Shown in pieces: positions 7,753 through 53,744 of a stretch of DNA of 64,000 bases (positions are counted from its first letter, which is position 1; each line of letters begins with the position of its first letter). This stretch comes from Pseudomonadales bacterium. Lineage in GTDB: Bacteria; Pseudomonadota; Gammaproteobacteria; Pseudomonadales; JAHEIH01. The notes beneath the pieces were generated by a model. It worked only from the letters and a program-made list of their open reading frames with translations. It did no database searches and was not told the DNA's origin. Made by a program: the position numbers and the translations under genes. Where the stretch lies: contig DATHYR010000041.1 in assembly GCA_035458985.1 (NCBI GenBank), positions 16,910-80,909 of the forward strand. Direction: 5' to 3'.

Positions 7753-8091
7753 TTACGCCTTCTTCACAAATTCGGATTTTAACTTCATGGCACCAATGCC
7801 ATCGATTTTACAATCGATATCGTGGTCACCCTCGATCAAACGAATATTCTTTACTTTAGTACCTACTTTGACAACAAGCGAAGATCCTTTCACTTTTAAG
7901 TCTTTAATCACTGTTACCGTATCACCCTCTTGAAGAATGTTGCCATTCGCATCCTTATAAATAGGTGCACCATCGCCGTTGGTCTGTTCAGCTTCAAGCC
8001 ATTCATGCGCACACTCAGGACACACTAGCAACGCACCATCGTGGTAGGTAAATTCGGACTGGCATTTGGGACAAGGAGGTAACGCGTTCAT
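7753..8091 (-). CDS. yjdM: zinc-ribbon protein YjdM/PhnA
   Basis: [30 protein letters not shown]-terminal zinc ribbon plus [28 protein letters not shown]-terminal domain. 112 aa. Confidence 0.9.
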
Positions 8092-8103
8092 AAAAAATCC
8101 ATA

Positions 8104-8673
8104 TTAAAAAACGGCGACGGAGACGCCAATGAGCCATGTATGTAGGTATTGAGCAAAGCCAAACCATAGAACGCTGGCGAATATTAGCGCCAACACATCG
8201 CGACGATACGACACCGGCAAAGGCGCAGGTAAAGGCCAATCACGCCACAACACAGATAGTACCCAGCCTAAAATAGCGACACACAATATCCACTGATGTA
8301 GATAGGCACTCACACTTAAATGCAAGATAGCCCACAATACAATCGCAAGTAACAGCGGCTGTTTTAGGTAAGAACGTATATGTGTCCCAGGAATCCAACT
8401 CGCGGCCACACCGAGCGCCACCCACCACATGCCATAAGACATCACTGTTCGCCAATAAGGCTCTGGCTGCCACAGCAATACAGGGGCTTGGCGTGCGGCA
8501 ATGAGTCCCCAACCGATCAAAGATAGCGCCATTAGCGTTATCAATGAGTAAACAATGCGAAAAGATAGGACGCCAAATCGGTCTATCAGGCGTGCTCGCA
8601 CATTGGGAAAATGACTACGAAGCGAATGCAACGCAATAAATATGACAAGCCCGATTAAAATGAGCCAATCCAT
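8104..8673 (-). CDS. NnrU family membrane protein
   Basis: Start reassigned to MDWLILIGLVIFIALHSLRS (ATG at 8673), because the longer ORF would run through the arsR-type gene. Five or six TM helices with an NnrU-like HS(L/V)R N-terminus. 5-nt gap to the upstream regulator. Confidence 0.7.
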   Translation of the reverse strand: MDWLILIGLVIFIALHSLRSHFPNVRARLIDRFGVLSFRIVYSLITLMALSLIGWGLIAARQAPVLLWQPEPYWRTVMSYGMWWVALGVAASWIPGTHIRSYLKQPLLLAIVLWAILHLSVSAYLHQWILCVAILGWVLSVLWRDWPLPAPLPVSYRRDVLALIFASVLWFGFAQYLHTWLIGVSVAVF

Positions 8674-46239: not shown

Positions 46240-46403
46240 ATAGCTTATATCTACTCATACCCATTGCGCTTTTCTTTGCTATTGTGGTGATCATCTTACT
46301 GTTCTGGTCTATCAACAGCGGCCAATACGACGATTTAGATAACGAAGCCAGCCGCATCCTATTTGATGACGACACACCTAAAGACAAGGACTCAAAGCAA
46401 TGA
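46236..46403 (+). CDS. ccoS: cbb3 oxidase maturation protein CcoS/FixS (55 aa, not in the ORF track)
   Basis: Hand translation: MNSLYLLIPIALFFAIVVIILLFWSINSGQYDDLDNEASRILFDDDTPKDKDSKQ*. Single TM plus the SGQYDDL motif. ATGA overlaps at both ends (ccoI stop and next gene start). Confidence 0.8.
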   Translation: MNSLYLLIPIALFFAIVVIILLFWSINSGQYDDLDNEASRILFDDDTPKDKDSKQ

Positions 46404-47065
46404 TCGAGGGGTTTGTCGCCGCTGTGTTGATGGGTTTGGCAGGCAGTGGCCATTGCATGGGTATGTGTGGCGGTATCGCCGCTGCCCTGGGACAACAACA
46501 ATCCAACGCGCTTCGCATCACGCTATTTAACTTAAGCCGAATATCTAGCTATGCCATCATCGCGGCGTTGGTGGGCTCAAGTATTGCTATTCTTGGTCCC
46601 GATTTCAAAATGTTGATGCCTATCTTACGCTTAATGGCGGGCTTGCTGCTCATAGCCATGGGGCTGTATCTGTTAGATTGGTGGCGTGGCATTCAATTCC
46701 TTGAGCGTGGTGGTGCCGTTTTATGGCGTAGCTTACAACCCATAAGCCGACGCTTGATGGGGCGTAGAACACTTCCTAGCACGGTCGCTCTTGGCTTGCT
46801 TTGGGGATTTTTACCCTGTGGTCTTGTCTATTCCGCCCTCAGCTGGTCAATCGCTTACAGTGGAGATACAAACGCCGCTTGGCTCATGCTGGGCTTTGGG
46901 GTCGGCACTCTTCCTTCGATGTTAGCCACCAGTTTCACTGGCGCGTGGCTACAAAAGCTATTTCGTCAACGTACGACACGATCCATTGTGGCGGTCAGTA
47001 TGATGATATTTGGTCTTTGGACGGCCGCCATGCCGATCATGAAAATGCTCACTGCGTTGCACTAA
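46400..47065 (+). CDS. TauE/SafE- or DsbD_2-like membrane protein associated with ccoS
   Basis: 221 aa, six TM. GSGHCMGMCGGI motif at the N-terminus and LPCGLVY later. Conserved position after ccoS. Confidence 0.7.
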   Translation: MIEGFVAAVLMGLAGSGHCMGMCGGIAAALGQQQSNALRITLFNLSRISSYAIIAALVGSSIAILGPDFKMLMPILRLMAGLLLIAMGLYLLDWWRGIQFLERGGAVLWRSLQPISRRLMGRRTLPSTVALGLLWGFLPCGLVYSALSWSIAYSGDTNAAWLMLGFGVGTLPSMLATSFTGAWLQKLFRQRTTRSIVAVSMMIFGLWTAAMPIMKMLTALH

Positions 47066-49076
47066 TGTCAATGATTCTATCTGCTGCGGCTAGACAATCT
47101 GGTCGATGTGCCACCATCAGTATCGTTAACCCAAGCGCTGGCTCGCGCAGCGCTTGCATGAGTCTTTTCTCCGCCAACACATCCAAATGACTGGTCGCCT
47201 CATCGAGCAATAACACGGCGGGTTGTCGATAGAGTGCTCGTGCAATTTGCACACGCTGTGCTTGTCCTGCACTCAAGCCATGACCGTATTCGCCGACCGG
47301 GGTATCAAGCCCCATCGGTAAATCTGCCAACACGCGATCAACACCGGACACAATGCACACGTGACGTAATCGTTGCCCATCGGGAGAGGGATCGAAGTGA
47401 CAAATATTGTCTTGTATACTGCCGCTCAACAAGCCATCGCCCTGCAGTACCGCGGCTACTTGCTCGCGCTGACACCCCCAACGGATAGATGCTGTATGTG
47501 TTTCCAACCCCAGTAGGGCTCGCATTAAGGTCGATTTTCCACATCCACTGCGTCCCGCAATGGCGACACACTCTCCCGGTTCTAAGGTAAGACGAAGGTG
47601 ACGGCCTTCCACCCTCAATATCTCCGGTTGGATATAGGCAAAAAGATGATTGTCCGGCTGCCGCTCGGTCATGGCGATATCTGCTAAACGATCTCGATGA
47701 ACAGGTAACAAACGAAGTGTTAGTAAGGCCGATACAAGGCCTTGGCTAGCACTGGCAAATCGCCCTTTGTAAGCTAGAAAAGCGAATAACATGCCGATGG
47801 TCATGTGCTGTTGCATCACCATATGGGCCGCCCAGTACACCAAGACAATGTGCTCAAGACCTTGTAAGGCACGTAAGGTCGTGTCTAATCTCACTTGCCA
47901 AAACTTAGCGTTGACATCAGCGCCATTGAAGTCGTGTAATTTGTCACACCACTGATCGCTTCGATCCTGACGAGCACCCATTTGCGCGATGGTTTGAACC
48001 ATGGCAATACTCTCTATGAAATGGCCATCAAGGGTCGCCCGCGATTGAACTGCCTGCTGCTGAGCACGCTTAATCCATCCACTACTCAACCACACGACAA
48101 GGACATACATCACCGTACTTGCCAACACGATACCACTCAACAATGGGCTATATAGCCACATGGCAAACAAGGCGGCTAGGGCCAAGATTCCATCCACAAT
48201 ACTCACCGCGAGTTGCTGACTGAATAGCTCTCGAAAATAATCAATGGCATTAAAACGAGACTGGATGTCACCGATGTGTCGCGCCGCAAAGAATCTTAGG
48301 GGTAGTGTCATTAAATGGCGAAATAATCGCTCACCAAGCTGTCGTTGCAACGCGGCAGAGAAACGCAATACCACGGCATCCCGAAGGTATTGTAGGGTTG
48401 TTTGAAACACCAATAACCAGGTAAACCCAAACGCCAAACTCCCCAGTAAAGCACCATCCAAGCGAAGCACGACATCGTCGACGACGGTTTGAACATACAG
48501 CGGCGAAAGCAACAAACAGGCCTGTAAAACGACAGATAGCAGCGCAACGGTCACCACCTGGCTGGCTACCGAAGCACTGTATAGCAATGGTCGCAAGGCA
48601 AATATCGGGAGGGGCTGACATGGCGCTGTGGCCTTGCCTCGTTGTAATAGCATCGCCACACCGGTGAAATGCCGGGCCATTTCGTTACTCGATAACCACC
48701 GTTCACCTCGTGCGGGATCGTGGATGAGATGCCTACCAAAACGGCGCCTCACATAGACCACGAAATGATTGAAATCCCAGTGCAACACCATTGGTGAGGT
48801 TTGCACCGCCAAATCAGTCAACGATAGGCTATACACTTGCCCTTCTAGCCCATAACTATGGGCAATTGCTCGCAACTGTTTCACTGTATTACCACGTCCT
48901 GCATTACCAAAACGTTCACGCAATTGTTTTAAACTAACGCCGACCCCGTGGTAATCAAAGCACATAGCTAAACACGCCAAACCACACTCGGCGGCTTCGG
49001 CTTGCCAAATCATGGGGATTTTTCGTCCGACGTTAAGCCGCCACCAGGGGCGTGTGTAAACTAGGGTTCCTTCCAT
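47049..49076 (-). CDS. peptidase-C39-domain ABC exporter (PCAT, CvaB-like bacteriocin/microcin transporter)
   Basis: 675 aa. N-terminal C39 motifs QAEAAECGLACLAMC (catalytic Cys), HWDFNHFVV (His) and HDP. Six-TM domain. NBD with GRSGCGKST, LSAGQAQRVQIARAL, LLLDEATSHLD, MVAHR. GAGAGGTG RBS. Confidence 0.88.
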   Translation of the reverse strand: MEGTLVYTRPWWRLNVGRKIPMIWQAEAAECGLACLAMCFDYHGVGVSLKQLRERFGNAGRGNTVKQLRAIAHSYGLEGQVYSLSLTDLAVQTSPMVLHWDFNHFVVYVRRRFGRHLIHDPARGERWLSSNEMARHFTGVAMLLQRGKATAPCQPLPIFALRPLLYSASVASQVVTVALLSVVLQACLLLSPLYVQTVVDDVVLRLDGALLGSLAFGFTWLLVFQTTLQYLRDAVVLRFSAALQRQLGERLFRHLMTLPLRFFAARHIGDIQSRFNAIDYFRELFSQQLAVSIVDGILALAALFAMWLYSPLLSGIVLASTVMYVLVVWLSSGWIKRAQQQAVQSRATLDGHFIESIAMVQTIAQMGARQDRSDQWCDKLHDFNGADVNAKFWQVRLDTTLRALQGLEHIVLVYWAAHMVMQQHMTIGMLFAFLAYKGRFASASQGLVSALLTLRLLPVHRDRLADIAMTERQPDNHLFAYIQPEILRVEGRHLRLTLEPGECVAIAGRSGCGKSTLMRALLGLETHTASIRWGCQREQVAAVLQGDGLLSGSIQDNICHFDPSPDGQRLRHVCIVSGVDRVLADLPMGLDTPVGEYGHGLSAGQAQRVQIARALYRQPAVLLLDEATSHLDVLAEKRLMQALREPALGLTILMVAHRPDCLAAADRIIDISATQ

Positions 49077-49094: not shown

Positions 49095-49364
49095 TTAGAG
49101 GGTTTTCAAGAGCAAACCTGTGACAAAAAGCACACCGGCAATACCATGCAGCGAATTCACTAGCGTGGACTTGACCTGGACCTTGCCAAGCTTGGCACTG
49201 ATAAATCGAACATTGTCAGGCAAGGGGAACAGAATCATAATAATCCCTAACGCCCACAAGACGTCTCCCCATGCCTGTTGCTGAATGTGTAACATAGCAT
49301 TGGCCATGGCTAAACAAAGCAAGATTATCAGCATGGCCATTAGGCCATTTTTCTTCATATCCAT
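49095..49364 (-). CDS. small three-helix membrane protein, candidate immunity protein
   Basis: MDMKKNGLMAMLIILLCLAMANAML...ALGIIMILFPL...GIAGVLFVTGLLL. Located between the peptide gene and the PCAT gene. Start chosen at the second ATG (AAAGG 9 nt upstream); the track start is 49373. Confidence 0.5.
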   Translation of the reverse strand: MDMKKNGLMAMLIILLCLAMANAMLHIQQQAWGDVLWALGIIMILFPLPDNVRFISAKLGKVQVKSTLVNSLHGIAGVLFVTGLLLKTL

Positions 49365-49404
49365 AACTGTCATCCTTTCACTGTGGTCATCCCTGAAGAT
49401 TAAA

Positions 49405-49427
49405 TGTGGCCCGCTGGGCGAGCCACA
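49405..49427 (-). terminator. stem-loop (possible partial terminator/attenuator) just after the peptide gene
   Basis: Minus-strand RNA UGUGGCUCG-CCCAG-CGGGCCACA forms a 9-bp stem with one G-U pair, followed by UUUAAUCUU. It begins 10 nt after the peptide stop codon. Confidence 0.45.
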
Positions 49428-49436
49428 CGCGGCGAC

Positions 49437-49640
49437 TTAATACTCGTTAAATAAGTCGTAGACCTCGCTTCCCAGCCAATTTCCTAATGTGTTAGCACCG
49501 TAAAAATTGGCCGTTTCATAAGACTGCTTATAGGTCACACCAATAGTCGCAATGAGGCCAAGCGCTTGCACCCAGCCTCCGGCTACGTGATCTAGCATGT
49601 CATCTTCAAGTGTTAGTAAGTCAGTATTGTAATCATCCAT
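49437..49640 (-). CDS. double-glycine leader peptide precursor (class II microcin/bacteriocin-like)
   Basis: MDDYNTDLLTLEDDMLDHVAGG|WVQALGLIATIGVTYKQSYETANFYGANTLGNWLGSEVYDLFNEY. Leader has L-15, L-12, L-7, V-4, G-2, G-1. AGAGGA lies 8 nt before the ATG at 49640; the track start at 49649 has no usable spacing. Adjacent to PCAT and HlyD genes. Confidence 0.75.
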   Translation of the reverse strand: MDDYNTDLLTLEDDMLDHVAGGWVQALGLIATIGVTYKQSYETANFYGANTLGNWLGSEVYDLFNEY

Positions 49641-49737
49641 GATTAACATCCTCTGTTGTGATGCCGCTACAGGATTGCAGCGACACTCTTAGTATTAGCC
49701 AGATGATTGACAGTCACCACTGCACCGACAGCCAGAA

Positions 49738-49941
49738 TTAGCTGAAAAATGTCAGTAAGCCCTGCCGATTATTGATGTTTAATTTGCGATATATATTGGA
49801 GCAATGAAATTTCACCGTTCGCTCCTCGATATGCAGATTTCTGGCAATCACTTTATTTGGTCGCCCCAATAGGAGTTCGCCAAATACCTGTGACTCACGT
49901 GGTGATAACAAACGACTTAGTTCTGATATTACATCTCTCAT
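49738..49941 (-). CDS. LuxR/GerE-type HTH-only transcriptional regulator (67 aa)
   Basis: LSPRESQVFGELLLGRPNKVIARNLHIEERTVKFHCSNIYRKLNINNR is the LuxR C-terminal DNA-binding domain. There is no receiver or ligand-binding domain. AAGGAG RBS. Confidence 0.8.
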   Translation of the reverse strand: MRDVISELSRLLSPRESQVFGELLLGRPNKVIARNLHIEERTVKFHCSNIYRKLNINNRQGLLTFFS

Positions 49942-49963: not shown

Positions 49964-51199
49964 TTAACGCGTGAAACCTCCACGCAACGAATAGAGCGGC
50001 TCAAATAGCCACTCCGCAAAAGACCGACGACTCAACACAACGTCGGCCTCAAAACTCATCCCTGTTTTGAGTTGATAGCGTTTACCATGCGCCAATACCG
50101 AGGTTTCCTCCAAGGCGACTTTGGCGGTATAGACAAATTCTCCATGCGTATCGGCATTTGGTGTATCGTTGAGTTGCTCGATGATGCCATGATGCACCCC
50201 GTACTTTTGGTAGGGGTAAGCACTATATCTTAGCTCGACGGGTTGACCTTCACTGACAAAACCCGCCGCCTGCACTGGGATATGCATTACGCCAATAAGA
50301 CGCGCATTATGCGGAAGAATGTTAAGCAAGGCTTGACCTGGACGCACTTCATCGCCAACGTGAATGGCAATGCTGTCAACGACTCCGGACTGCGCTGCCA
50401 CAATGGCATGATACCCCTTCCCTTGAAGATCAATCATTTGCTGGGAAAAACCATGAGATGCCGCCTCATGTCGGCTCTTGTTGAGCGCTTGTTCGGTCGC
50501 CAAACTCGCCAGTTGTTGTTCTAGGGAGACATGTAGGCTTTGCTGATCGGCGAATTCGCCCTCCAGACTGAGCATTTGCAATCGCAGATGATGAATTTTT
50601 TCCTGCATATCAAGCAGTGAGGCGGCGGCCACATGTCCCTGCTCAAAAAGAATCTTAGCCCTATCATATTGCTGATTGGCCATCTGCAAAATTAATTCAC
50701 GATCATGCTTAGCTGTTTCAAATAACGCTAACTTTCGGGAAGAACCCGCCAACTGTGAAACGAGCCTCTGTTGTTTTTGGTCATCAAGCTCTGCTTGGCG
50801 AACTTGCTGTTCTAATAATGTCTGCTGCTGCTGATCCAGTACGCCTCGCTGAGCATCGAACACTGACAGCCCATTAGACATAAAATGAAGCGGACTCACG
50901 AGCATTAATACATCACCGGCCTCGACCGTCTGACCGATATTAACAAGCTGCTCAACGATTCGACCTTGCACTGGCGAACGATGTGTTTGTACACCGGCGG
51001 CGGGTTCTACCCAGCCAATGACCGTTTGATAGCGCACGAAGTGCTGAGTTATCAACCAGCCTGTCGCCACCATAGATAACACCATCATGACGACCATCAC
51101 CCACAGATAGTTGGTTTGTAATGGCGTATAGAATGGCCTTACACGGCCCTGGGCGGCATACAATACGGCATCCTGCCGAAAAATAGGTAACGCTTTCAT
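49964..51199 (-). CDS. HlyD/CvaA family membrane fusion protein
   Basis: N-terminal FRQDAV motif as in bacteriocin MFPs, one TM helix, a long Gln/Leu-rich coiled-coil and a C-terminal beta-barrel domain. 411 aa. Confidence 0.85.
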   Translation of the reverse strand: MKALPIFRQDAVLYAAQGRVRPFYTPLQTNYLWVMVVMMVLSMVATGWLITQHFVRYQTVIGWVEPAAGVQTHRSPVQGRIVEQLVNIGQTVEAGDVLMLVSPLHFMSNGLSVFDAQRGVLDQQQQTLLEQQVRQAELDDQKQQRLVSQLAGSSRKLALFETAKHDRELILQMANQQYDRAKILFEQGHVAAASLLDMQEKIHHLRLQMLSLEGEFADQQSLHVSLEQQLASLATEQALNKSRHEAASHGFSQQMIDLQGKGYHAIVAAQSGVVDSIAIHVGDEVRPGQALLNILPHNARLIGVMHIPVQAAGFVSEGQPVELRYSAYPYQKYGVHHGIIEQLNDTPNADTHGEFVYTAKVALEETSVLAHGKRYQLKTGMSFEADVVLSRRSFAEWLFEPLYSLRGGFTR

Positions 51200-52217: not shown

Positions 52218-52246
52218 TTGACGCTCCCTGCCCCAACCTCTATTAT
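52218..52246 (+). promoter_or_regulatory. sigma70-type promoter for tRNA-Ala
   Basis: TTGACG, a 17-nt spacer, then TATTAT, followed by a GC-rich discriminator (TCGCACC). About 38 nt upstream of the tRNA 5' end. Confidence 0.6.
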
Positions 52247-52283
52247 TCGCACCACTTTCGAGGCACACTCGAATCCCAAATTT

Positions 52284-52359
52284 GGGGCCTTAGCTCAGCT
52301 GGGAGAGCGCAACACTGGCAGTGTTGAGGTCAGCGGTTCGATCCCGCTAGGCTCCACCA
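52284..52359 (+). tRNA. tRNA-Ala (anticodon GGC)
   Basis: Cloverleaf folded by hand: acceptor GGGGCCT/AGGCTCC with the G3:U70 Ala identity pair, D-arm GCTC/GAGC, anticodon stem CAACA/TGTTG with loop CTGGCAG, T-arm AGCGG-TTCGATC-CCGCT, and an encoded CCA. Confidence 0.93.
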
Positions 52360-52368
52360 AAAATAAAA

Positions 52369-52395
52369 GATCACCTTCGGGTGGTCTTTTTTTTT
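52369..52395 (+). terminator. Rho-independent terminator 1 after tRNA-Ala
   Basis: GATCACC-TTCG-GGTGGTC followed by nine T. Confidence 0.75.
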
Positions 52396-52443
52396 GCGTG
52401 GCAAAGCCGGCGTGGAGAGAACCGCTGAAAGCGAGTTCAATGA

Positions 52444-52470
52444 AGACCACCTCCTGGTGGTCTTTTTTTT
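52444..52470 (+). terminator. Rho-independent terminator 2 (duplicate)
   Basis: AGACCACC-TCCT-GGTGGTCT followed by eight T. Confidence 0.7.
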
Positions 52471-52550
52471 GCGTGGCAAAGCCGGCGTGTAAAGTTATGG
52501 GAGTCGTCTGCTGGCAGACGGCGATAGCGCTTGTCTATTTCACATGCGAG

Positions 52551-53744
52551 ATGCTACAAAGACATCCTTCCAATATGTGCGATCTCATCATGATAAAAAA
52601 CACCCTAACACTCTACCCCGCTGCGCAAGCCCTTGGCGCCTCAGCGGCGCCCATCGTGATCTCTCTGGCGGGACTGGTGAGTATTTCGCTCGGAGCGCAC
52701 AAGGACATCGCCACACTGCCCATCTTTTTACTGAACGCAGGGATGGCCGTTTCCACCTTGATCGCGGCCTATTCCATCAAAACCTTAGGGCGAAAAACCG
52801 CCTACATCATCGCCGCCACGGTGGCGCTTCTCGGTGCAGGCTTACAAACAGCGGCGCTTCTACACACCTCATTTTTATTGTTTTGCATTGGCACTACTAT
52901 GCTAGGTTTTAACGCGGCGCATATTCAGACCTACCGCTTTGCTGTCATGGAGGGACAACCCACGCACGATCATGGCAAAGCTATTTCTAGGGTCATGCTC
53001 GGTGGTCTAGTAGCCGCCATTATCGGGCCACAGATTGTCGTATGGGGAGGAACGTTAGCAAGCGGACAATTCATCGCTAGCTTTGGTGGTATTGGTGTTT
53101 TGCTGGTCTTGCAAATCCTCATCCTCAGTGGACTGCCTCGTTCGCCAGCACAGTCTCGGCAACAGCATCAGCAACCCAAGGTATCCATCTGGACCCTGTT
53201 ATCTCGACCGACCTACGTTACGGCCATGCTCGCGGGCGTGGTGTCCTATGCGTTAATGGCCTTTGTGATGACCGCTGCCCCCATTGCCATGGTGTCGCAT
53301 GGGCATCCTGTGAGCGATGCTGCGCTTGGCATTCAATGGCACGTGCTGGCGATGTATGCGCCCAGTTTTTTCACAGGCAAACTGATTGAGCGCTTTGGCA
53401 AAGCCACCATTACCGCGATCGGCTTACTTTTCATTGCACTTTCCGGGGGTCTAGCCCTCATGGGGTTAGACTTAATGCATTTCTGGGGTACGTTGATACT
53501 CTTAGGTCTTGGTTGGAATTTTGGCTTTACCGGCGCCACGGCCTTAATCGCCACCTCAGTCAGCGACGAAGAGAAAAGTGTCGCACAGGGCCTGAATGAC
53601 TTTATGATCTTCACGACCATGGCCATTGGGTCACTCATGGCTGGCTTCATGTTTAATTCCATTGGCTGGCAAATGCTGAATCTAGTGGTCTTTCCCGGCG
53701 TAGCCATAGCCCTGGCTATGATGCTCCTCCACCGCGCGAAATAA
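52551..53744 (+). CDS. MFS transporter
   Basis: About 12 TM helices. The track ORF (52218-) runs through the tRNA and terminators, so the start was moved to the first downstream ATG (52551; 52575 and 52590 are also possible). Confidence 0.78.
   Translation: MLQRHPSNMCDLIMIKNTLTLYPAAQALGASAAPIVISLAGLVSISLGAHKDIATLPIFLLNAGMAVSTLIAAYSIKTLGRKTAYIIAATVALLGAGLQTAALLHTSFLLFCIGTTMLGFNAAHIQTYRFAVMEGQPTHDHGKAISRVMLGGLVAAIIGPQIVVWGGTLASGQFIASFGGIGVLLVLQILILSGLPRSPAQSRQQHQQPKVSIWTLLSRPTYVTAMLAGVVSYALMAFVMTAAPIAMVSHGHPVSDAALGIQWHVLAMYAPSFFTGKLIERFGKATITAIGLLFIALSGGLALMGLDLMHFWGTLILLGLGWNFGFTGATALIATSVSDEEKSVAQGLNDFMIFTTMAIGSLMAGFMFNSIGWQMLNLVVFPGVAIALAMMLLHRAK

Follow-up and report, generated by a model that had tools for sequence, protein, structure and literature searches.

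The class II microcins of Gram-negative bacteria, mature peptides of ~5-10 kDa that are unmodified save for possible disulfides (PMC10233263 Table 1; PMC12219008), are the described systems closest to the one analysed here, a small peptide gene and its operon in a 64,000-nucleotide stretch of DNA from a Pseudomonadales bacterium (contig DATHYR010000041.1 of assembly GCA_035458985.1, positions 16,910 to 80,909 of the forward strand); this whole stretch is called the window below, and positions are counted from its first letter. Microcin precursors carry a signal of 15-18 residues for which the pattern M..R/[KEQI]x[IL]x9G[GAS] has been published; the immunity gene is defined operationally as adjacent, small (median 82 residues) and encoding transmembrane (TM) helices; and the mature peptides attack the inner membrane from its periplasmic side (PMC10233263; PMC12219008 for all three). 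The genes for the TolC-type outer-membrane factor are usually unlinked to the microcin loci (PMC10233263), and nearly all validated class II microcins stem from Enterobacterales, Acinetobacter and Vibrio having provided one each (PMC12219008).

In the window, a five-gene operon on the minus strand encodes, in this order, a HlyD-type adaptor, a LuxR/GerE regulator, the peptide, a protein with three TM segments and a peptidase-containing ATP-binding cassette transporter (PCAT). In our judgement the locus probably encodes a linear, unmodified bacteriocin of the class II microcin type, made as a precursor from the peptide gene, together with its cognate immunity protein. The following characters of the class are found at this locus: the host is Gram-negative, a PCAT with an intact C39 peptidase domain is accompanied by a membrane-fusion protein, modification genes are absent, the predicted mature mass of 5081.6 Da lies at the lower limit of the size range, and an adjacent candidate immunity gene, whose protective role is predicted, codes for 89 residues with three hydrophobic segments and accompanies the peptide gene in 17/19 distinct loci. 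The novelty lies in the sequence family, comprising both the peptide and the candidate immunity protein, and in the small size; the kind of system is already known, and a specialist would not be surprised by the locus, since class II microcins are reported to be abundant and highly diverse (PMC12219008).

With the class IIa microcins (MccV, MccL, MccN and the 31 'EN' of Parker et al. 2025) the locus shares a Gram-negative producer, a signal ending in Gly-Gly or Gly-Ala (GG/GA), an adjacent PCAT and HlyD-type adaptor, an adjacent small TM gene of the immunity type, the absence of modification genes and a hydrophobic, neutral-to-anionic core; MccN is also devoid of Cys. It differs from them in that homology between the cores is undetected, in being chromosomal where theirs are plasmid-borne, in the 22-residue leader of its sub-clade, in the helix-turn-helix (HTH)-only LuxR gene of its operon and in its host, an environmental metagenome-assembled genome (MAG) of the Pseudomonadales/Cellvibrionales.

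The peptide gene and its family

The peptide gene is made up of the following elements:

49649..49654, minus strand: Shine-Dalgarno sequence AGAGGA, 8 nt 5' of the ATG at 49640, as read from the sequence
49575..49640, minus strand: double-glycine leader MDDYNTDLLTLEDDMLDHVAGG, 22 codons, with hydrophobic residues at -15, -12, -7 and -4 and Gly-Gly at -2/-1
49440..49574, minus strand: predicted mature peptide WVQALGLIATIGVTYKQSYETANFYGANTLGNWLGSEVYDLFNEY, 45 residues, followed by the stop codon at 49437-49439

The open reading frame (ORF) on the minus strand runs from 49649 to 49437 and comprises 70 codons, yet the true coding sequence is 49640..49437, of 67 residues with a 22-residue leader, because of the spacing of the AGAGGA sequence, because the ATG at 49649 is itself part of that Shine-Dalgarno sequence, because L012 and L013, two of the relatives, lack the upstream ATG, and because the gene callers used on related contigs annotate the 67-residue form; GAGGA is kept in 5/5 related loci. 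The preference for the ATG at 49640, expressed in an initial annotation made from the DNA letters, is thereby borne out. An in-frame decoy ATG inside the gene's own Shine-Dalgarno sequence, 9 nt 5' of the real start, occurs both in the peptide gene (49647-49654, AGAGGATG) and in the next gene (49371-49378, AAAGGATG), and mechanical ORF calls are therefore three codons too long in both.

The leader has Leu at -15, -12 and -7, Val at -4 and Gly-Gly at -2/-1, and the predicted core of 45 residues lacks Cys, His, Arg, Pro and Met; its only Lys is set against four acidic residues (one Asp and three Glu), and it has nine aromatic residues (two Phe, two Trp and five Tyr) and five Gly; every leader position and every count given in the initial annotation was reproduced on recounting. 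The calculated pI of the core is 4.05, and its C-terminus (...VYDLFNEY) lacks the Ser/Gly-rich tail that serves siderophore attachment. The peptide is deposited as HSG60287.1, a 'hypothetical protein' of the MAG named 'Pseudomonadales bacterium', with which the proteins of the window match exactly.

The peptide ORF is a genuine gene, and chance does not account for it. The strict double-glycine leader pattern has only two matches in the six frames of the 64-kb window, the second being a TM segment of a larger ORF, and the peptide ORF is placed between the adaptor and regulator genes and the sole PCAT of the region. Comparison with an orthologue of 78% identity gives proportions of altered sites of 0.12 (nonsynonymous, pN) and 0.84 (synonymous, pS, at which the sites are saturated), and for L012 and L013, the least saturated pair, the ratio dN/dS is ~0.10; judged by these substitution patterns, the gene is under purifying selection. 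An exhaustive phmmer search returned ten matches, eight of which are small double-glycine-leader peptides with a common core, and a profile search extended the family to ~37 protein clusters. The initial annotation had allowed that homologues might prove to be fragments of larger proteins; this was not the case, the long matches P0007 (4032 residues, through a repeated 'GSATKANYQAAL' unit) and P0012 (an unrelated protein, again through a repeat) being spurious and devoid of the family motif.

Members of the family occur in Cellvibrionales/Pseudomonadales MAGs, in Shewanella gaetbuli and another Shewanella, in Colwellia, Alteromonadaceae and Pseudohongiellaceae, and in a few metagenome contigs, the metagenome scan having contributed only three loci. 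Their cores are 39-50 residues long, with 5-12 aromatic residues and a net charge between -3 and +4, and Cys is absent from the cores of 33/33 members with a GG/GA leader; given this span of charges, the Cys-free and aromatic-rich composition is a family trait, and the anionic character belongs to a sub-clade only. The latter cannot therefore serve as the distinguishing mark for which it had been taken, and the related proposal, which took the absence of Cys and of positive charge as a difference from the microcins, fails likewise, both traits being common among them: MccN and the class IIb microcins contain no Cys, MccL and MccE492 have charges of -3.4 and -4.0, and most microcins are neutral or anionic (PMC10233263).

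The conserved core reads T-[YF]-[KR]-x-[AS]-Y-E-T-A-[TN]-[FW]-[FY]-G-A-x-x-x-G-x-[WYA]-[LI]-G-x-x-x-Y-D; within it Y19, A22, G26, A27, G31 and G35 are invariant and E20, T21 and Y39 are conserved in >=90% of the members, and the variable parts are the N-terminal hydrophobic stretch and the last five residues. Two members (L029, 2775-2981, and P0038) carry a Sec-type signal in place of the double-glycine leader, a feature consistent with action outside the cytoplasm; in L029 the peptide is cut short at its C-terminal end, and the vicinity of its gene holds no three-TM homologue.

None of the sequence resources consulted contains the family as such. The window peptide has no match in Pfam and only a sub-threshold leader match, to XyeA, in NCBIfam; a search of PDB sequences with the family profile gave only a chance antibody match (E 1.8), and strings of the core motif had no match in the literature searched. 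The matches of members to known models are sub-threshold, and the Pfam ones are lost once the leader is removed; no entry of Pfam, NCBIfam or PDB covers the leaderless cores.

Partner protein, transporter and regulatory elements

The other genes of the operon are:

49964..51199, minus strand: HlyD-family membrane-fusion (periplasmic adaptor) protein, 411 residues, first gene of the operon (Pfam HlyD_3, 5e-18)
49738..49941, minus strand: LuxR/GerE HTH-only regulator, 67 residues, without receiver or ligand domain (Pfam GerE, 4.8e-19)
49095..49364, minus strand: 89-residue protein with three hydrophobic segments, candidate immunity protein; the real start is at 49364, the start of the 92-residue ORF at 49373 lying inside the Shine-Dalgarno sequence AAAGGA
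47049..49076, minus strand: PCAT, 675 residues, with the C39 domain at ~48636-49019 (Pfam Peptidase_C39, 2.5e-31; ABC_membrane, 8e-29; ABC_tran, 1e-23)

The constant companion of the peptide is the 89-residue protein. A hidden Markov model of it, applied to the fetched loci (a word-index search had reached only the two closest orthologues), recovers a homologue on the same strand, immediately or closely 3' of the peptide gene, in 30/32 loci, corresponding to 17/19 distinct ones; it is missing only from a contig that breaks off 158 nt past the peptide gene and from the Sec-signal variant with the truncated core (L029). All homologues have three hydrophobic segments, with an invariant W32 after the first and an invariant P47 where the second one ends. 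The protein has no match among the families of Pfam or NCBIfam, its AlphaFold2 model is of low confidence (pLDDT 62.9), and it is the fastest-diverging product of the operon (38-58% identity across the related loci compared). As a candidate immunity protein it matches the published operational definition of microcin immunity genes.

The surroundings of several relatives point in the same direction. Genes of the CPBP/Rce1-like (Abi) type are found in L015, L019, L021 and L024, and Abi proteins are described as serving bacteriocin self-immunity (Kjos 2010, as cited in PMC8692603). Three bacteriocin-like cassettes of Shewanella gaetbuli DSM 16422 (L021, 6900-10700) share an identical 20-residue leader and repeated upstream DNA, their cores being unrelated; the small membrane proteins encoded after them differ from one cassette to the next, the three-TM homologue (8279-8530) standing only after the family member (8001-8213), and the array ends in a CPBP/Rce1-like gene. 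The whole resembles a modular locus for several bacteriocins, in a strain that can be cultured. In a Pseudohongiellaceae MAG (L022, 7600-9300) an orphan pair of peptide and three-TM genes, with no PCAT within 8 kb, lies between a Fic-domain gene and a MazE/PemK toxin-antitoxin pair.

The PCAT, whose identity across the related loci is 52-76%, has a C39 domain whose closest structural relative is the double-glycine protease LahT150 (6mpz, 2e-21). Its Cys31 occupies the alignment column that holds the catalytic Cys in PCAT1 and a Tyr in the inactive HlyB domain, and the alignment with PCAT1 and LahT150 shows that Gln25, the NHFVV His and the IHDP Asp are kept as well; as far as its residues tell, the domain is catalytically intact. 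The initial annotation had recognised in the leader the pattern of C39 peptidase substrates, and the presence of a double-glycine leader beside a PCAT with intact catalytic residues argues for this assignment. The adaptor, which matches the NCBIfam model type_I_hlyD under its cut-off (7e-35), occupies the equivalent position in L003, L007, L011-L013, L026 and L030. Neither the operon nor any related locus contains a gene for a radical SAM, LanB/C/M, YcaO, ATP-grasp or other modification enzyme.

The regulator is the most conserved product of the operon (76-99% identity across the same loci), is confined to the sub-clade of the window and is absent from most loci of the family. It stands beside conserved intergenic elements:

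49717..49737, minus strand: conserved 21-nt box TTCTGGCTGTCGGTGCAGTGG, directly 3' of the luxR stop codon, nearly invariant in 5 loci
49663..49684, minus strand: imperfect inverted repeat GTCGCTGCAATCCTGTAGCGGC, 5' of the Shine-Dalgarno sequence of the peptide gene, with arms that seem to change together across 5 loci
49404..49428, minus strand: GC-rich stem-loop with a T-rich tail, just 3' of the peptide stop codon, terminator-like, 11 pairs

The box TTCTGGCTGTCGGTGCAGTGG, of which the window contains no second copy at up to 3 mismatches, may be a regulatory site. The arms of the inverted repeat GTCGCTGCAATCCTGTAGCGGC, as read by eye from the alignment without pair counts, are CGCTGCA/TGTAGCG, CGCAGCA/TGCTGCG or CCTAGC/GCTGGG according to the locus, and the element may be a stem-loop of the 5' untranslated region or an operator. 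Together with the LuxR/GerE protein these two elements suggest local regulation; a promoter scan found no consensus sigma-70 site 5' of the peptide gene. The hairpin that follows the peptide gene has a minimum free energy of -19.8 kcal/mol (z = -1.9), and a 7-bp stem is found in 5/5 related loci, one pair being preserved through double changes in two sequences; it may act as a partial terminator or as an mRNA-stabilising hairpin and plausibly keeps the peptide mRNA in excess, for which operons of the nisA and mccA types provide a precedent.

It is in the light of these elements that a peptide signal has to be weighed, the initial annotation having left open whether the product is a toxin of a new family or a secreted signal. 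According to this alternative, which we hold to be unlikely, the exported 45-mer would be sensed outside the cell, possibly via the three-TM protein and the LuxR/GerE regulator, in a form of Gram-negative peptide quorum sensing. Export through a double-glycine leader and a PCAT does serve pheromones of the ComC and BlpC types, ComA being among the matches of the PCAT; a transcription regulator and conserved intergenic boxes lie directly 5' of the peptide gene, and conservation of the motif in the middle of the core is unusually high, as would be expected of a ligand. However, a histidine kinase is encoded neither in the operon nor in any related locus, the count for kinases or response regulators being 0/19 distinct loci; the regulator is an HTH-only domain restricted to one sub-clade, the constant partner is a small three-TM protein without any signalling domain, relatives reside in multi-bacteriocin loci with Abi genes, and cores of 39-50 residues exceed typical pheromones. 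An assignment to the ComC/BlpC/PlnA-type pheromones in particular was rejected, as the operon has no HisKA/HATPase gene and its sole regulator, the 67-residue GerE protein, has no receiver domain. A variant of the idea, in which the peptide, its three-TM partner and the HTH-only LuxR protein form a circuit of cell-cell signalling or kin recognition instead of a toxin-immunity pair, is judged improbable; in such a circuit the three-TM protein would be a membrane receptor, with the highly conserved YETAxFFGA...GxxxG core as the surface of its ligand. The toxin half of the original proposal thus fits the genomic context (the partner in 17/19 loci, the CPBP/Abi genes and the multi-cassette arrays), and the signal half is disfavoured by the lack of a sensor kinase in every locus.

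As for its chromosomal position, the operon is flanked on one side by the ccoNOQP-GHIS genes and on the other by an alpha/beta hydrolase gene and a tRNA-Ala gene, an arrangement common to the related contigs, and its GC content is unremarkable. The family was found neither in the plasmid collection nor in the viral contigs searched and is therefore not obviously mobile; the locus looks like a vertically inherited, chromosomal one and not like a recent island. The PCAT gene and a convergent gene of the DsbD_2 family (46400..47065), which closes the ccoGHIS cluster, share 17 nt at their 3' ends (47049-47065), and the same convergent overlap occurs in L001, L007 and L030. On the other flank, a unit of ~75 nt, consisting of a terminator-like hairpin AAGATCACCTTCGGGTGGTCTTTTTTTT and GCGTGGCAAAGCCGGCGTGGAGAG, is tandemly duplicated at 52361-52494, directly after the tRNA-Ala(GGC) gene (52284-52359); a 508-codon ORF with a TTG start (52218..53744) traverses this tRNA gene, and its 5' part is consequently spurious.

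Comparison with other peptide classes

Membership in described families was assessed model by model. The Pfam model MccV (PF17508, gathering threshold 27 bits) does not match the window peptide, and nine relatives match it below threshold (best E 0.0022); in the two relatives inspected the matches amount to ~15 bits with the leader included, and none is obtained with the cores only. The alignment of the core with mature MccV by hhalign has a probability of 3.5%. The published microcin signal motif is matched in full by 18/36 leaders of the family.

The Gram-positive class II bacteriocins (PF10439; TIGR03949) resemble the family in the type of leader, the small unmodified core, the GxxxG-like motifs and the downstream immunity gene, as well as in the Abi/CPBP genes of some loci and in the name that NCBI gives to one member. 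They differ in that no partner peptide is present here and in that the Gram-negative envelope requires an adaptor and an outer-membrane channel; the window peptide matches neither model, and the matches of relatives (14/36 members for TIGR03949 and 10/36 for PF10439) are weak and sub-threshold, those to the Pfam models Bacteriocin_IIc and MccV vanishing with the leader. These resemblances bear on the idea that the peptide needs a second one, as in class IIb-like two-peptide bacteriocins, or has an accessory role and no activity alone: the NCBI name of the Shewanella gaetbuli member is 'class IIb bacteriocin, lactobin A/cerein 7B family', the invariant small-xxx-small motifs recall those of two-peptide bacteriocins, and the Colwellia and S. 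gaetbuli loci contain additional double-glycine peptides. Yet the window holds a single double-glycine-leader ORF and a single copy of the family, as does the sub-clade as a whole (L001-L013, L026 and L030), and the extra peptides of the other loci have small TM partners of their own, which makes this explanation highly improbable.

A resemblance of another kind links the leader to the XyeA triceptide precursors (TIGR04495), over ~19 residues, and the core of both is rich in aromatic residues. On it could be founded a reading of the peptide as a precursor of the ribosomally synthesised and post-translationally modified (RiPP) type, its aromatic core being modified, for instance through triceptide cyclophane cross-links of the XyeA kind, by an enzyme encoded elsewhere before export by the PCAT; besides the nine aromatic residues, the proximity of the C39 domain to LahT150, which derives from a lanthipeptide transporter, could be cited in its support. 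However, the XyeA match (21.1 bits, E 2.5e-4 with the 70-residue ORF and 2.6e-4 with the 67-residue form) falls short of the cut-off of 33 bits and is confined to positions 13-31, i.e. to the leader region, the Pfam matches of the members are equally dependent on the leader, and the genes for radical SAM, LanB/C/M, YcaO and ATP-grasp enzymes are missing from the operon and all related loci; moreover, with no Cys and with its arrangement of Ser and Thr the core is unsuited to lanthionine formation. XyeA membership was accordingly rejected, and a modified product is considered very unlikely.

The bacteroidetocins of the Bacteroidota are likewise small Gram-negative peptide toxins with a double-glycine signal and genes near a PCAT; they are described as related to the class IIa pediocin-like peptides (PMC6671954). 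They have no immunity protein (PMC10233263), in contrast to the present family with its dedicated three-TM partner. What is known of their target suggests that the peptide might be a toxin directed at the outer membrane, for example at BamA, and not at the inner membrane: bacteroidetocins, with their small size, leader and linkage to a PCAT, are reported to target BamA (PMC8546649), the 45-mer lacks a recognisable uptake module, and its C-terminal half is rich in aromatic residues. We give this possibility little credence, considering the co-conserved polytopic partner, the position of the C-terminal residues as the least conserved part of the core and the absence of sequence similarity to bacteroidetocins.

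Proposed mode of action and significance

Taking the peptide as a microcin-type bacteriocin with its own immunity protein, we infer the following course of events, from maturation to self-protection. The C39 domain of the adjacent PCAT would recognise the 67-residue precursor via its 22-residue double-glycine leader and cut after Gly22, and the 45-residue, 5.08-kDa core would cross both membranes through the PCAT, the HlyD-type adaptor and a TolC-like channel whose gene is unlinked. In related bacteria the peptide would then reach the periplasmic face of the inner membrane, a site of action proposed by analogy with the class II microcins. There it may fold as a helix-hinge-helix, with a hydrophobic N-terminal helix, a hinge at FYGA and an amphipathic C-terminal helix that presents the invariant A27xxxG31xxxG35 face; the AlphaFold2 model of the precursor, of low confidence (pLDDT 62.4), places helices at 22-47 and 49-65 with the hinge at FYGA, and the C-terminal helix of the core is amphipathic, with a hydrophobic moment of up to 0.52. 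Following the example of the class II microcins, this face might pack against an integral inner-membrane receptor, or the peptide might insert beside it, with the loss of membrane integrity as a consequence. Protection of the producer would fall to the three-TM protein, which would either bind the peptide or shield the membrane receptor; the stem-loop that separates the peptide gene from the three-TM gene would keep the peptide mRNA more abundant than the mRNA for immunity protein and transporter, and in the sub-clade of the window the 67-residue LuxR/GerE protein would control the peptide promoter.

A number of observations speak against such an assignment and have to be set beside the evidence in its favour. 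The core, at 45 residues, is shorter than the mature forms of the ten long-known class II microcins, which have at least 60 residues (74-90 in the values tabulated), and the leader of the window peptide fits the [IL]x9GG part of the published signal pattern but is 22 residues long and has Leu at -14, where R, K, E, Q or I is expected. In 4 distinct loci of the family a PCAT is missing within 4-8 kb; orphan pairs of peptide and three-TM genes occur in L017/L022, L018, L020 and L032. The operon contains no TolC-like gene, the search for which was limited to the operon itself. The peptide evolves no faster than the adaptor, so that there is no strong signal of diversification on the toxin; no uptake module for the outer membrane is recognisable in the 45-mer; and Foldseek found no fold match in PDB for the peptide or the three-TM protein, the models compared being of low confidence (pLDDT ~62).

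The advance represented by the locus is incremental rather than conceptual: it defines a compact, unannotated peptide family, together with a putative immunity family of its own, in environmental Gammaproteobacteria. The sharply conserved central motif suggests a single conserved receptor, and the family is tractable, as the 45-residue core, unlike most microcins, can be synthesised chemically and as a culturable carrier exists in Shewanella gaetbuli DSM 16422. Should the activity be confirmed, genes that currently stand as 'hypothetical protein' could be named with the help of the two family profiles, and the ecology of microcins would extend to aquatic bacteria.

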